Shown: piece after piece, positions 4,849 through 56,083 of the stretch | How positions within the stretch are numbered: position 1 is the first letter of the stretch | Layout of the letters: each line of letters opens with the position of its first letter | Virus record (IMG/VR): IMGVR_UViG_3300046323_000360 | Span: 32,192 to 96,191 of that record | Reading direction: 5' to 3' (one strand) | Source of the DNA: a virus | Length of the DNA: 64,000 nucleotides | Position numbers and translations under genes: made by a program | The notes under the pieces: model-generated | The model's input: the letters and a program-made list of their open reading frames with translations, nothing else | What the model was told of the DNA's origin: nothing | The model's database searches: none

Positions 4849-5391
4849 TTAGTACTTAAAGTGTCTAAGTTGACGGCTTAGGTATGGATTAGGTCTAGTT
4901 CCAGGGTGTAAAACTCTCTGACTTCTAATAATTTTAGATCCAGATCTAAATACCAAAACTCCACCTTCATCCTTAGGAGCGATAAAATGAGGTTTAGATC
5001 CGTTATGATGTAGCAGGGCATAACTCAGGTTGGATCCCATTATTACGGTCTGCCCCCTGGAGTCAGCAGTGTGAGTTTTATATAAAGACTTTCTAAGTGC
5101 TCCAGTTCTAACACCAACTTGAGCCTTAGCACCATACATAGCCATAGTGCTACGTCGCTCTAGGTCTTTCCAAAGCCCTCCGGCTGGAGTATGTAGTTCC
5201 AGATTTAGTGCCCATTCGTAGAACTTAATATCCTTATAACTCAGTGTCATAGTTATGTTTGTAGTTCTAAAAGCTACACCAGTTGCTTGTCTAGTTGATC
5301 TTCCAGATCTTCTAGATCTAGTAGATTTTCTAAGTGCCTTACCTACATAGTAGCCACCTATGCTATCTCCGATTAGCCCGTATGCTGGCAT
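4849..5391 (-). CDS. tail completion / HK97 gp10-like neck protein
   Basis: VRTGALRKS...SNLSYALLHHNG...HPGTRPNPYL motifs; position in head-tail module. Confidence 0.7.
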   Translation of the reverse strand: MPAYGLIGDSIGGYYVGKALRKSTRSRRSGRSTRQATGVAFRTTNITMTLSYKDIKFYEWALNLELHTPAGGLWKDLERRSTMAMYGAKAQVGVRTGALRKSLYKTHTADSRGQTVIMGSNLSYALLHHNGSKPHFIAPKDEGGVLVFRSGSKIIRSQRVLHPGTRPNPYLSRQLRHFKY

Positions 5392-32178: not shown

Positions 32179-32338
32179 TGCGGTAGACCTTATTGACGGT
32201 CAAGACACTAGTGTCGGGGTTATAGGTTGCGTCAATCAAGTAGTCGGTATTGTTCTCCAACTTATGTAGTCGGTTCTTGACTGACTTGCGCCCAGCAATG
32301 AACGCGCAGACCATAGCAACGGCAATGAAAAGTTCCAT
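32171..32338 (-). CDS. small membrane-anchored protein (paralog of 36473..36640)
   Basis: TATGGT-N6-ATG leaderless start at 32338; GRKSVKN..ENNT..VLTV resembles GRLSVGN..ENAT..VLTI. Confidence 0.6.
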   Translation of the reverse strand: MELFIAVAMVCAFIAGRKSVKNRLHKLENNTDYLIDATYNPDTSVLTVNKVYRNE

Positions 32339-51537: not shown

Positions 51538-51796
51538 TTGATTTCCTTTCGTTGCCTTAGTTCAGGATAGCATACCTTCAATCAACAAGCAACTACTAAT
51601 CAAAAGTTTTCTCTTTCTTTTTTTCAGAAAAAATAAATACTCCCCTCGAAAATACCGGGCGAAGCGAAACCCCCGACCAGTGAAAGGAGTTGGTCAGGGG
51701 TTTCTAATCTGGTGGTCAGTAGCACTTCATTGGGCTATGCGCGGAGAAAGGAACGGAACAACACCGCGCCCTGACCACCAGACTTCTTGGGGCTAG

Positions 51797-53659
51797 TTAG
51801 AAACCAGCCGTTGCTTTTTCCAGAGCCTCGCTCGCTGACTTTCCAATCAGGGTCGCAATGTTGCTTGGCTCTAGTCCGTCAAGCAGAACCGCGTGAGTTC
51901 CCTTGATAATCTCACGAGCGTTCCAACGCTCGCCGTGAACCTTGTCTGGGCTAATCCAGAGAACAGCCACGCCGTTCTTTTCGCAAGCCTTGACAGCCTG
52001 ACGCGCGTTCTCGGTTTCAACATCTGTATAACAGCCGTCCGATACGACAACCAACATACGCGCACCGCGTCCGTAGAGCAGGTCAAGTGTGCCGTCCAGA
52101 GCCGAGAAACCCTTGCCAAACTTTTCTGTGCCGTCCGTTGCCGAATAGACGCGAACCTCGTCCAACTTCTGTCCGACCTTTAGAGTGGCGAACACATCAT
52201 TGCCGTAATAGACCATAGCGGTCTTGGCTTGAATACGCTTGCCAGCCTCACCAAGAACCCACGCCGTAGTTGCCATAGGGTTCATAGCCGAACCCATAGA
52301 ACCGCTAATGTCCACCATTACGCCGATAGACAGAGTTGGCTCGTCCGTGTGCTTGCGAACCTTGTGTTCCCACGCAGGGTTCTTGCTCATAATGCCCTTG
52401 CTCTCTAATGCCTTGTTCTGAACAAGAGCGCGAGAACGCAGACGACCTGCTGGCAGTTCCGAGCGAATAATCGTCAAGTCGCGCTCGCGGTATTTTGCCT
52501 TGTCCAACATCTGCGCGACTTTGACAGAGGCAATGCGCTCTGCCGAAGTTGGCTTGCGAACCTCGACCAAGCGAGAGCCAGAGCGAGAGGAGGGCATAGT
52601 GGTCGTGCCTTTGCTATCGCCATTGCTCTGCTCAAAAACTTCTTGGGCAGTTGCCTTGTTAGAACGAATAATCTTTTGGGTCTTGGCGCGTTCTTTGGTT
52701 TCCTTATCCCAATCCTCTTGGGTCTGCTGGTCGCCCAGAGCGTTGCCAGTTGCGATAGCAGTTTCCATTGCGTCCTCTGCCAGAGCCTCAATGAGTTCGA
52801 CAATAAAGTTGCCCTCGCCCTCGCCCTCGCCCTCGCCAGAACCAGAGCCAGCGATAACAAAGCCACCCTCGCCCTCGCCAGTTTCCTCGCCCTGTTCCTC
52901 GGCGCGTTCCTTTAGCAGTTCGACCCACTTGGTAGCCAGCGCAATGCCAGCCTCTAGGTCGCCTGTCTTGTGGCAAACGAGAGCCTGAAAGTCAATCCAG
53001 ATTTCGCGCAACTTGGCAACTAGGTCTGGGCTAAGAACCTCAAGAACCTTTTGCTCAACAAGCAGAATGTCGCTTGTTTCAAGAACGCCAGCGTCCACGC
53101 GAGCCAAAGACAATCCTGCTAGGTGAGCAGTTGCGAAAGTCTTGGTCATTTTTTCAAGGTCGCCCTCGCTAAGGTCGCCCAGAGCAAGTTGTAGAGCAGA
53201 GGCGCGTAGGAACAACTTGTTCTCTGGCATACCCTTTGCCCCTAGACCCTCAATGCGACTTTCCTCCAAGAGCATAAAAGCGTCAATGACCTGCTTGTCT
53301 TGAGTCAGAGTTTCAAGATACTCAATGTTCCAAGTGGTGTGCTTGGCGTGTAGTGCCTCGTGATAGATAACCCCTGTTGCTTGTGGAAACTCAAACTGCT
53401 GGTCGCGCTCGCGGAGGTCGCCAACCATTGTTGGCGTAGTTGCCTTGCCAAAGGCAATAGGCAAGTTGATTTCGATTTCGGCGGTATCGCGGTAAAATGC
53501 GGCGAGTGCCTCTCCATTTACAGCGTCAATGCCAGCGTAAACAACTAGGTCAGTTCGACCTGCCCAATCGTTTGCGACCTGTCCAATCTGGGCGCAGGTG
53601 TGTAACCATTCGCGCGGAGTTTCGCTTTTGCGTTCCGCAATCCTTGAGTAGTGAGCCAT
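51797..53659 (-). CDS. vWA-domain protein with N-terminal HExxH domain (CobT/MoxR-partner type)
   Basis: YHEALH...LEESRIE; MIDAS VDISGSM and VVSDG. Confidence 0.85.
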   Translation of the reverse strand: MAHYSRIAERKSETPREWLHTCAQIGQVANDWAGRTDLVVYAGIDAVNGEALAAFYRDTAEIEINLPIAFGKATTPTMVGDLRERDQQFEFPQATGVIYHEALHAKHTTWNIEYLETLTQDKQVIDAFMLLEESRIEGLGAKGMPENKLFLRASALQLALGDLSEGDLEKMTKTFATAHLAGLSLARVDAGVLETSDILLVEQKVLEVLSPDLVAKLREIWIDFQALVCHKTGDLEAGIALATKWVELLKERAEEQGEETGEGEGGFVIAGSGSGEGEGEGEGNFIVELIEALAEDAMETAIATGNALGDQQTQEDWDKETKERAKTQKIIRSNKATAQEVFEQSNGDSKGTTTMPSSRSGSRLVEVRKPTSAERIASVKVAQMLDKAKYRERDLTIIRSELPAGRLRSRALVQNKALESKGIMSKNPAWEHKVRKHTDEPTLSIGVMVDISGSMGSAMNPMATTAWVLGEAGKRIQAKTAMVYYGNDVFATLKVGQKLDEVRVYSATDGTEKFGKGFSALDGTLDLLYGRGARMLVVVSDGCYTDVETENARQAVKACEKNGVAVLWISPDKVHGERWNAREIIKGTHAVLLDGLEPSNIATLIGKSASEALEKATAGF

Positions 53660-53791
53660 TTCCGTTCCTTTCGTTTATGGCTTGTATTTTGTTGTAGTCC
53701 TAGTAAAGCAGTTTTTGGAGAGCGTGTCAAGTTGATTTTGAAAAAAGTTTTTTGACACGCTCTCCCTGCTTTAGCGAAAGGACGAGAAACG

Positions 53792-54808
53792 CTAAATCTT
53801 TGCTGGCTTGACTTCCTCACCAAAGACGCGAGTGAAAACATCTGCCACTACTGGGCGGTCATTTTCAGGCGCACCTGCGAGCAAGTTAGCAACAGCCCAC
53901 TTAGTTCCAAAGGTCTTGGAAAGGTCGCGGAAAGCAAGTAGTTCGCGCATTTGTGGCGACCAAGAAACCTCACCCGAAACCTGCTTCTTAGACAAGTTCT
54001 GGCTGGCAGTAATCATTGGGGCAGATACACCCAACTTCTTAGCCAATCCCCAATCAGTAGTCATTTCGACCTGAATGGTGAAACGCGATAGCAGAGCCTC
54101 TGACAAGCGAACCCCAGGTGCGTTTGGGTTAGTTGCGCCAACAACATAAAAGCCCTCTTTGGCTTTGATAGTTCCGCGCTCTGGGTTCTGGGTAATGGTC
54201 AGTTCACCGCGTCCGTCCATAAGACCATAGACAGCAGACATAACCTTTGGGTCAATCAGACCAACCTCGTCAATCAAGAGAGGACGACCCTGCTCAACAG
54301 CGCGAACCAATGCGCCGTCAATCCACTCAAAGCCACCAGACGGAGTTTGAACATAGCCACCAATGAAGTCTGAAAGTTCGGTGTCGCCAGAGCCAATAAT
54401 GGTTTCTAGTTCGTCACCAAAAGCACCCTCAACGAGAGCAGTTTTTCCACAGCCCGGTGCGCCATAGAGCAAAACAAACTGGTGAGCCTCACGCGCTTTG
54501 CGTAGAACCTCAATGTCGGTGTGTTCGCCCCAACCACGCGAGTAGTAGTCGTGACCATTCGGGCGAGCATACTTCTCTGCGCCCTTGAGTGCGTCTGTTT
54601 CCACTTTTGCCTTGTCTGCTTGTTTGTGGGTCGTTGGCTCTCCACCCCTATTACGAAGTGTAGCACGACCAGCAGTAGGCATAAGGCTGTCAAGTCCAGC
54701 AGGAACAGCAGTAGGGTCAAGTTGCTGAATAGCAACTCCATAGACCAGAGCCGAAAGGTCTGGGTAGAGAGCGTCAATGTCGTTCTCGACAGGGGCAATA
54801 CTTGTCAT
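53792..54808 (-). CDS. MoxR/CbbQ-family AAA+ ATPase
   Basis: GAPGCGKT, LLIDEV, ATNP, LSEALLSRF. Confidence 0.9.
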   Translation of the reverse strand: MTSIAPVENDIDALYPDLSALVYGVAIQQLDPTAVPAGLDSLMPTAGRATLRNRGGEPTTHKQADKAKVETDALKGAEKYARPNGHDYYSRGWGEHTDIEVLRKAREAHQFVLLYGAPGCGKTALVEGAFGDELETIIGSGDTELSDFIGGYVQTPSGGFEWIDGALVRAVEQGRPLLIDEVGLIDPKVMSAVYGLMDGRGELTITQNPERGTIKAKEGFYVVGATNPNAPGVRLSEALLSRFTIQVEMTTDWGLAKKLGVSAPMITASQNLSKKQVSGEVSWSPQMRELLAFRDLSKTFGTKWAVANLLAGAPENDRPVVADVFTRVFGEEVKPAKI

Positions 54809-54850
54809 TTTGTTTTCGTCCTTAGTTAGTTGGTTTGTTGCTATAAGTGA

Positions 54851-55312
54851 TTATAGCACTTTTTCTGGAAAGTTCAAAGCGACACGCGCTTTCTGGATAC
54901 GGCGTAGCAGAGCAGACGGAGTTTTCCAATCCTTGACTTCTGCTAGGTCAATGGTGCTTACCTCGGCAACAATAGGTGTCTTGCGAAGTTCCATTTCGTA
55001 GGCAATCTGACGCTTGATAACGCTCTCAATCTGGGCAACCATTTCGACAGCCTTTTCCTGTGCTGTGGTCTGCGCGATAGGCGTTCCAAAAAGTTCCTTG
55101 TTGTTCACGCGAGAAAGCGAGATACGCCATTGCTTACGAGGCGACCAATCGCTCACGGTGCGAGAGTGAACAGCCATTGGAACATAGTTGGCACTCTCGT
55201 CAAAACCCTCTGGTGTTACGAGGATTTGGGTAACAACATTCTGACCTGCCTCTTTGGTGGTCTTTGGCACTAACTCAATGTAGATAGCCTTGCCAACAAT
55301 CTTGTCTGTCAT
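54851..55312 (-). CDS. hypothetical protein
   Basis: 153-aa ORF with AAGGA RBS, heads the MoxR operon. Confidence 0.7.
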   Translation of the reverse strand: MTDKIVGKAIYIELVPKTTKEAGQNVVTQILVTPEGFDESANYVPMAVHSRTVSDWSPRKQWRISLSRVNNKELFGTPIAQTTAQEKAVEMVAQIESVIKRQIAYEMELRKTPIVAEVSTIDLAEVKDWKTPSALLRRIQKARVALNFPEKVL

Positions 55313-55433
55313 TTCTTTTCGTCCTTAGTTCGATTTGTTTGTTTTGGTATTCAGTTGTAGTTATGACTTTACTCGCTTATTTTGAAGTTGTCAAGTCTTA
55401 TTACGAAGTTTTTTATAACGAAATGGTAACGCT

Positions 55434-55964
55434 CTAATAGTGTAGGTCTACGGGAATGAGATACTGCTTTGCTGGGTTGGTCTTTACACGCTCAACGAAA
55501 GAGCGTAGGTTCGCTGTCCAATCAGTTAGGTCATAGATAGCAGTATCTGGTGTCCACTCATCATCAAGTAGTTGTGCCAACTTCTTAGTTCCATACAAGT
55601 CCATGTCCCAAGTTTTCGTGTATGGGTCATAGGCGTATGTAGATAGGTCAATCGCTTTTGACTTGTAGTTGCGAATCTCATCTAGGCGTTGCTGGAGAAA
55701 CTTCTCAATAACAAGTTCGGCGAGCGCAGGCTCGTCTGCGTAGCAGAGGTGGTTAGCAATCTCTGCGTCTGGGTCTGGCTCGCCATTTTTGTTAGGAGTA
55801 AAGAACACAGCGTTAGACCAGCGACCTGCAAAGTCTTTCGTGTGTGCGCCAGAGGCTTCGTGCCAATCTGACCAACTAGGGCTTTCAGACAGTGCGCCCT
55901 CTACTGCGTCAAATGCTTCCTCTGGGCTATCTGCCTCAACGAGCATAATCTGACATACGTGCAT
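55434..55964 (-). CDS. conserved phage hypothetical protein
   Basis: MH..ILVEA...WSDW...GRW...YLIPVDLHY pattern. Confidence 0.7.
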   Translation of the reverse strand: MHVCQIMLVEADSPEEAFDAVEGALSESPSWSDWHEASGAHTKDFAGRWSNAVFFTPNKNGEPDPDAEIANHLCYADEPALAELVIEKFLQQRLDEIRNYKSKAIDLSTYAYDPYTKTWDMDLYGTKKLAQLLDDEWTPDTAIYDLTDWTANLRSFVERVKTNPAKQYLIPVDLHY

Positions 55965-56083
55965 TTGGGTCGTCCTTTCGTATTTGGATACAACAAGAAC
56001 ATTACCCTATTTAGTTGTTCAATGCAACTCGTGTTGCGGTGTGTCAGAAAAAATAAATACAGTATTGGCTCGTATTTATTTTT

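Follow-up and report, generated by a model that had tools for sequence, protein, structure and literature searches.

In the virus contig IMGVR_UViG_3300046323_000360, the gene for a CobT-like protein with a von Willebrand factor A (vWA) domain was found to carry, in its 3' untranslated region (3'UTR), a 13-nt sequence which is the exact complement of its own ribosome-binding site (RBS). The complement is displayed in the loop of a hairpin, it covaries with the RBS among related phages, and it is specific for its own gene. The adjacent gene, which codes for a CobS/MoxR-like AAA ATPase, contains a 3' element of the same kind directed to its own RBS. On the basis of these comparisons, it is probable that the two genes each possess a private 3' anti-RBS, which would pair with the RBS of the same gene and limit its translation. 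The stretch under analysis covers 64,000 nt (positions 32,192 to 96,191 of the record) and represents the right-hand 64 kb of the single 96,191-bp contig. It is called the window here, and all coordinates refer to it.

The vWA ribosome-binding site and its complement in the 3'UTR

The features of the vWA gene which form the basis of the analysis are the following:

51797..53659, minus strand: coding sequence (CDS) of the CobT-like vWA protein, 620 aa, with a C-terminal vWA/MIDAS motif (DISGS); identified as an open reading frame, with the stop codon at 51799-51797
53660..53672, minus strand: vWA RBS, the 13-mer GAAAGGAACGGAA, comprising the Shine-Dalgarno (SD) sequence and the spacer and abutting the ATG; identified from the sequence
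51746..51758, minus strand: anti-RBS UUCCGUUCCUUUC in a hairpin loop, complementary to the vWA RBS at 13 of 13 positions; duplex energy -21.7 kcal/mol
51708..51782, minus strand: 3'UTR hairpin 1, with an outer stem of 12 bp, an inner stem of 6 bp and a loop of 19 nt; folding energy -37.3 kcal/mol, z -5.1
51666..51704, minus strand: terminator-like hairpin of 14 bp with a weak U tract; its loop ACUCCUUUCAC is a generic anti-SD sequence with a 7-nt match to the vWA RBS

Read on the minus strand, the sequence leading into the vWA start is ...aaaCGAAAGGAACGGAA-ATG, which is ...CGAAAGGAACGGAA-AUG in the mRNA. The complement, TTCCGTTCCTTTC in DNA letters (51758..51746), is located 38 nt past the stop codon, between the stop codon and the terminator-like hairpin. 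A 13-nt complement of the vWA RBS in its own 3'UTR had been described in the initial annotation of this DNA; the match proved to be exact, and the description was correct in every detail, including both coordinates. No exact copy other than the 13-mer and its complement occurs in the window or elsewhere in the 96,191-bp genome. The display of the complement in the loop of a nested GCGCGG/CCGCGC stem, as described in the same annotation, was reproduced by RNA folding with the energy and z score listed for hairpin 1. Here, the inner stem (51769-51764 / 51744-51739) closes the loop holding the anti-RBS, and the outer stem is formed by TCTGGTGGTCAG/CTGACCACCAGA (51782-51771 / 51719-51708). The entire vWA 3'UTR was predicted to fold at -79.7 kcal/mol (z -5.8).

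The RBS of 90 genes of the genome was compared with the 3' region of the same gene, and the vWA gene alone exceeded 9 nt. As a control for chance, 893 pairs of an RBS and a 3' region from different genes of the genome were used, for which the longest complement was 11 nt. Judged from the window alone, the vWA match is suggestive, and it is the comparison of homologous sequences, described below, which settles the matter. In the initial annotation, the vWA match was also taken as evidence that the other anti-SD loops of the phage are functional. This extension could not be upheld: genome-wide, only the vWA and AAA elements are gene-specific, and the remaining loops have generic matches of 5-9 nt at most. 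The more general proposal that all anti-SD loops are addressed to their own genes was rejected; genome-wide, no other gene has a complement of more than 9 nt between its own RBS and its 3' region.

Covariation among homologues and a second element in the AAA gene

For the 620-aa vWA protein, 2295 homologues were identified. Among these more than 2000 relatives, 172 loci with protein identities of 43-56% were taken from metagenomes and from IMG/VR, the latter being sampled with 80 of about 250 relatives. The starts and stops of the homologues were placed by tblastn, and 28 nt around the start (-25 to +3) were compared with 150 nt past the stop. Statistics on lineages were based on one representative per lineage of 70% identity (n=53).

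When the RBS was compared with the 3'UTR of the same locus, the longest perfect antiparallel complement had a mean length of 8.8 nt (124 non-redundant loci). In the controls, 6.2 nt were obtained with the 3'UTRs of other loci, 6.1 nt in the same-sense orientation and 5.4 nt with the final 150 nt of the CDS of the same gene. The duplex energy was -18.5 kcal/mol for own pairs, -14.5 kcal/mol for cross pairs and -14.0 kcal/mol for the reversed own UTR. On the level of the 53 lineages, the mean was 8.66 nt for own pairs as against 6.24 nt for cross pairs (Wilcoxon p=3e-9), and runs of at least 10 nt were present in 36% of the lineages as compared to 3.4% of the cross pairs. The complement in the homologues reaches a length of up to 15 nt.

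At least 17 distinct co-varying pairs of 9 nt or more were identified. Examples of the matched sequences are GAAAGGAACGGAA (this phage), CAACGAAAGGACGAA (L001), TGACGGAAGGAC (L029), TAAACAGAAAGGATT (L034) and CTTTTAGAAAGGG (L091), with further examples in GGACAACAACAGA (L065), AAGGATAAGAAA (L020, L028) and TTTTGGAAAGG (L093). The columns of the helix show two to four types of Watson-Crick pairs each; this anchored column analysis was used for the diversity of pair types alone, since it is biased near the anchor by the choice of the best run for own pairs only. The covariation demonstrates selection for complementarity. The compensatory changes in homologues which the initial annotation had named as a check are present in these pairs, and its proposal of a specific target for the pairing of RBS and 3'UTR is supported by the covariation over 53 lineages and by the gene specificity within one phage described below.

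The position of the complement was also compared among the homologues. In 53 of 90 loci it is located within a hairpin loop of the folded 3'UTR, as compared to 12.3 loci expected by random placement. For most lineages, the vWA anti-RBS was found about 20-50 nt past the stop or in the terminator loop, and in some lineages the complement is present in the terminator loop instead of the first hairpin, or in both hairpins. When the whole locus of about 4.8 kb was searched, the 28-nt RBS window was the best complement to the 3'UTR in 19 of the 53 lineages. One of the homologues is that of the isolated phage DSL-LC01 (OQ999401; from a lake sample), where the RBS AAAGGACAA is matched by the loop TTGTCCTTT in a hairpin with a 15-bp stem.

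Pyrimidine-rich loops which mimic the 3' end of 16S rRNA would fit any strong SD sequence, and the match of 13 out of 13 positions could then represent a lucky extension of a generic anti-SD loop. Cross-locus matches of 6-7 nt are indeed usual. However, the matches reach into lineage-specific flanks which are not complementary to the 16S tail (ACGGAA here; TGAC or ATAAGAAA elsewhere), and the own pairs exceed both the cross pairs, at the p value given above, and the pairing with the RBS of the neighbouring gene in the same phage. Since the extensions of the matches go beyond what the 16S 3' tail could pair with, the vWA loops are not simply rRNA mimics, and an origin by generic pairing or chance is scarcely credible.

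The complement is not found throughout the protein family. It is lacking, with 5-6 nt only, in cyanophage S-RIM32 CobS, Pelagibacter phage Mosig, Gordonia phage GodonK and Microbacterium phage Pumpernickel, and it is lacking, as judged by eye, for the vWA homologue of Microbacterium phage Cece. Because these distant cultured phages lack the complement, the feature does not track CobS genes in general.

Two further observations were made on the vWA 3'UTRs. Within a single lineage, L018 (and L109) differ from L020-L022 and L028: the vWA RBS now contains an SD of the AGGTGAG type while the loop still reads TTTCTTATCCTTTCT, and the complementarity has disappeared. Either a naturally decoupled variant or a wrongly assigned start codon could account for this. 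The hexamer TTGAGC is present in 32 of the 124 vWA 3'UTRs, as compared to 0.04 expected per 120 nt of CDS. It was found in the 3'UTR of 11 of the 53 lineages, most of which have, immediately outside the anti-RBS loop, a conserved GGA-UU-GAGC / GCUC-UCC helix with a UU bulge. The lineages for this segment (first 120 nt past the vWA stop) are L002, L004, L005, L006, L011, L060, L091, L093 and L107, and the helix segment is absent from the vWA hairpin of the phage analysed here.

Immediately upstream of the vWA gene, the AAA gene was identified to contain a second element:

53792..54808, minus strand: CDS of the AAA protein, a CobS/MoxR-like ATPase of 338 aa; Pfam AAA_5, 1.6e-18
54812..54823, minus strand: AAA RBS AAGGACGAAAAC; identified from the sequence
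53774..53791, minus strand: AAA 3' element CGUUUCUCGUCCUUUCGC, beginning 1 nt past the AAA stop, with complementarity to the AAA RBS over 8 nt, plus 4 nt across a bulge
55970..55980, minus strand: RBS CGAAAGGACGA of a 176-aa gene, the first gene in the cassette; an 11/11 complement of the AAA 3' element and its best match genome-wide

For the AAA homologues of 48 lineages, the complement between the own RBS and the own region past the stop was 7.42 nt, compared to 5.71 nt (p=3e-7). The element lies 0-6 nt past the stop in 19 of the 32 lineages having a run of at least 7 nt. It often forms the loop of a 3-bp mini-hairpin, as in cag-TTCCGTTC-ctg against GAACGGAA, and in other lineages it is located in the terminator loop, where the complementarity extends over the start codon (GACACCCATG against CATGGGTGTC). 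When the two elements of one phage are compared, the vWA element matches the vWA RBS over 8.33 nt and the AAA RBS over 6.17 nt, and the AAA element matches the AAA RBS over 7.42 nt and the vWA RBS over 5.54 nt (p<1e-6 for each element, with the energies in agreement). Because each element favours its own gene within one phage, genome composition and ancestry are removed as explanations.

Proposed mode of action and transcript context

The mechanism which is favoured here would act on the level of the message. Once transcribed, the 3' element would pair with the SD and spacer of the same gene, and would in this form compete with the 30S subunit for the RBS. Ribosomes would load chiefly on the still-nascent message; on completion it would close, with cleavage or storage as possible further fates. 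Action on the RNA level is indicated by the overlap with the SD, the antisense-only orientation and the loop display. Pairing in vivo, repression of translation and action in cis are inferred. Silencing of the completed transcript, with translation restricted to nascent RNA, had been proposed in the initial annotation and appears plausible in view of icaR and of aSD-like (anti-SD-like) 8-mers which act at a distance, both described below (PMC3868564, PMC12697547). An intramolecular 5'-3' fold-back would be preferred to some extent over a released 3' fragment. Action in cis is favoured because the AAA element adjoins the stop codon; the layout of hairpin and terminator at the vWA gene suits cis action or a released fragment alike.

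Several observations weigh against this mechanism. When a vWA mRNA of 2043 nt was modelled, the nested minimum free energy (MFE) structure left the SD unpaired and contained no contact between RBS and 3'UTR. The helix between loop and RBS is a pseudoknot, and therefore a nested MFE structure cannot display it. A 13-bp helix within a closed loop of 19 nt would also demand either the opening of the inner stem or the threading of the 5' end through the loop. In the homologues L002, L005, L018, L070, L153 and L155, only a generic anti-SD core of 6-7 nt is kept, or none. For the phage analysed here, the AAA 3' element fits several RBSs of the cassette, so that its target is ambiguous; its lower selectivity can be attributed to the resemblance of the cassette RBSs to each other. 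Finally, a test of strand specificity by comparison of G-U with A-C wobble pairs met too few internal mismatches.

Covariation would likewise be expected if the two copies were inverted sites bound by a protein on the DNA level, for example as an operator pair or as sites for looping which bracket the gene and change to fit the protein, and the wobble-pair test could not reveal strand specificity of an RNA. Against such sites, one copy always overlaps the SD and spacer, and the other lies in a hairpin loop at the frequency given above (53 of 90 loci versus 12.3 expected), with stems that differ by lineage yet still pair. In addition, same-sense copies are not enriched (6.1 nt), and two different private pairs per phage would presuppose two proteins, each having changed together with its sites in every lineage. 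An explanation by DNA-level sites is thus very unlikely.

The transcript context of the vWA gene is characterized by two features:

53702..53730, minus strand: putative vWA promoter TTGACA-17-TTTACT, 42 nt before the ATG; read from the sequence and not among the calls of a consensus scan
53717..53766, minus strand: intergenic 14-bp hairpin GGGAGAGCGUGUCAA...UUGACACGCUCUCC, in the interval from the AAA 3' element to the vWA RBS; identified from the sequence and by folding

Promoter-like sites 21-48 nt before the vWA ATG were identified in 20 of 44 lineages by a regular-expression search, which was based on a -35 box of the TTGAC/TTGCG type, a spacer of 16-19 nt and TAnnnT. Other lineages carry ctgaTATAAT before vWA, as seen by eye. 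Since a promoter of its own would give the vWA message a short leader, the pairing predicted from the sequence would be close to end-to-end. The arms of the intergenic hairpin hold TGTCAA and TTGACA, with the 3' arm providing the -35 box of the putative promoter, and this arrangement recurs in many homologues. The hairpin is no obvious terminator, because it is without a U tract; a role as operator or as processing site is possible.

In a read-through RNA, a long interrupted helix was predicted around the intergenic hairpin (53657-53800, minus strand), in which the AAA 3' element pairs with the vWA RBS and start codon; the local fold has an energy of -48.8 kcal/mol (z -7.4). Sequestration of the vWA RBS by the AAA element was considered as a candidate function and was rejected, since the fold is strong here but not conserved in homologues. 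If the read-through fold forms, a free vWA RBS would be present only on transcripts from the internal promoter.

Consensus-type promoters were also identified further upstream on the minus strand. A site TTGAAC-16-TATAAT with TG (54850-54877) precedes the AAA gene and overlaps the stop of the 153-aa gene, and a site TTGACA-17-TAAAGT (55366-55394) precedes the 153-aa gene. Because predicted promoters precede individual genes, the four-gene cassette may have up to four transcription starts.

A trans-acting small RNA (sRNA) provides a possible alternative to the fold-back in cis. Here, the 3'UTR, released or stable, would pair with the RBS of other copies of the parent mRNA and would serve as dose feedback or as a timed shut-off of this early gene. 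In Vibrio cholerae, the 3'-end RNAs OppZ and CarZ act in this way on their own operons: after release by RNase E they pair in trans with their own transcript, in an Hfq-dependent manner, and inhibit its translation, resulting in a negative feedback, and OppZ also triggers Rho termination (PMC7398697). The phage 3' seed likewise complements the RBS of the operon to which it belongs, and an exposed seed loop hairpin followed by a terminator hairpin is the layout of 3'UTR-derived sRNAs. L020-L022 have two loops with the same anti-RBS, and covariation and gene specificity suit a trans mechanism as well as a cis mechanism. On the other side, the consensus scan gave no promoter-like hit towards the 3' end of the vWA CDS, and, unlike the trans-acting OppZ and CarZ, the AAA element is held 0-6 nt past the stop in most lineages, a placement which a free sRNA does not need and which argues for cis. 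Actinobacteria are not known to possess Hfq, and this counts against a trans-acting sRNA for a phage of such a host.

The position of the AAA element raises another alternative, in which initiation is gated by termination. The pairing would place the stop codon next to the start, and the terminating ribosome would strip off the anti-RBS and license a new initiation in a closed loop, so that ribosomes are metered or recycled and the message is not just silenced. The footprint of a ribosome at a stop codon is large enough to cover 0-6 nt past the stop, and the AAA anti-RBS falls inside it in the 19 of 32 lineages mentioned above. In most lineages, the vWA anti-RBS falls outside this footprint, at about 20-50 nt past the stop or within the loop of the terminator. 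In addition, repression is the effect of the long-range anti-SD pairings described so far, natural as well as synthetic (PMC3868564, PMC12697547), and gating by termination is considered improbable. A related and rather doubtful idea is that the mRNAs of the AAA and vWA subunits are self-closing, ribosome-counting closed loops, where termination would reopen the AAA RBS and would thereby fix the output per transcript and the subunit ratio.

The closest known system to the favoured cis pairing is icaR of Staphylococcus aureus. Here, an anti-SD motif in the 3'UTR, UCCCCUG, pairs with the SD of the same mRNA, blocks the formation of the initiation complex and creates a substrate for RNase III; it concerns one bacterial gene and was called a singular example by its own authors (PMC3868564). 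The phage elements resemble icaR in that a 3'UTR motif complements the own SD region, with a vWA duplex of 13/13 positions and -21.7 kcal/mol that covaries in 53 lineages. They differ in that the complement is longer (up to 15 nt), reaches past the SD, is displayed in a loop and is private to each of two adjacent genes. Further, icaR was characterized by experiments, whereas the phage case is known from sequence, with covariation in about 50 lineages.

For the type I toxin mRNA hok, the full-length message is kept inert by end pairing in the fbi/tac fold-back, in which the 3' end pairs with the 5' end and not with the SD. Type I toxin mRNAs such as hok and aapA code for small toxic peptides, are controlled by an antisense antitoxin RNA and are activated by 3' trimming. 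The phage products consist of 338 aa and 620 aa, and neither the AAA nor the vWA gene is an open reading frame for a small hydrophobic toxic peptide; no antisense RNA partner was found, although none was searched for. The comparison is therefore one of mode of action alone. A closed phage message may be degraded, kept for activation at a later time like hok-type mRNAs, or opened again by terminating ribosomes. A 5'-3' long-distance interaction is also described for aapA3, a type I toxin mRNA of Helicobacter pylori (PMC6733600).

Two examples from Bacillus subtilis are also of relevance. Gill et al. showed in a 2025 preprint that aSD-like 8-mers located hundreds of nt downstream reduce initiation by pairing with the RBS and also favour decay; these were synthetic substitutions, and aSD-like sequences were found to be depleted from natural genes (PMC12697547). 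The phage elements, in contrast, have been kept by selection and are matched to the RBS of their own gene. The hbs mRNA shows a natural contact between 5'UTR and 3'UTR, which governs the access of ribonucleases and the stability of the mRNA and not the occlusion of the SD (PMC5737220).

Gene cassette, host and significance

The cassette on the minus strand consists of the 176-aa gene (55434-55964), the 153-aa gene (54851-55312), the AAA gene and the gene for the 620-aa vWA protein, in this order. In an alignment of 29 vWA homologues, the residues D450, S452 and S454 of the MIDAS-like DISGS motif are invariant, and the start at ATG 53659 is supported by the invariant residues M1 and H3. The match of the vWA protein to Pfam VWA_CoxE is weak (E=0.0014; 18.5 bits, under the cut-off of 26.4 bits); a profile search against PDB sequences gave no match, and no match to a PHROG was obtained. 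For the isolated phage DSL-LC01, the vWA homologue bears the annotation 'cobalamin biosynthesis protein' (CobT-like). The vWA protein contains a Gly/Glu-rich low-complexity linker with GEGEG repeats (about 52815-52895, minus strand), encoded by tandem ggcgag units, which falls in the poorly conserved middle of the alignment. In addition to AAA_5, the AAA protein matches PHROG 16448 (ATPase) and PHROG 249 ('porphyrin biosynthesis').

The relatives among cultured phages with strong matches to both the AAA and vWA proteins all infect actinobacteria, namely Actinomycetia phage DSL-LC01 and phages of Microbacterium and Gordonia, and the metagenomic relatives were mainly obtained from lakes. Because of these two observations, the host is probably a freshwater actinobacterium. 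Within the 64-kb window, neither a tRNA nor a tmRNA was identified, and no covariance model of Rfam 15 gave a match at the gathering score. A 16-mer, GTATTTATTTTTTCTG, occurs on the minus strand at 56045-56060, upstream of the 176-aa gene, and at 51625-51640, past the vWA terminator at the next cassette. The same 16-mer was found after the vWA gene of the relative L001 (about 4955-4975), for which the protein identity is only 55%.

Natural long-range occlusion of a bacterial RBS by a 3' end has been described in just three reports, as listed in a 2025 preprint (PMC12697547). The phage case would represent an evolutionarily conserved and gene-specific form of such occlusion, present in two adjacent genes. 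About 17 or more independent sequence solutions over some 50 lineages provide a ready set of natural compensatory mutants, and experiments are feasible because the related phage DSL-LC01, which carries the same feature, has been isolated. A testable system is thereby available for asking whether an mRNA can use its 3' end to set the timing or an upper limit of its translation, and whether it does so in cis or in trans. For the annotation of phage genomes, it should be considered that 3'UTR hairpins of early regions may regulate and not merely terminate. For the phages themselves, the finding poses the question why a CobS/CobT-like AAA/vWA pair needs tight dosing.

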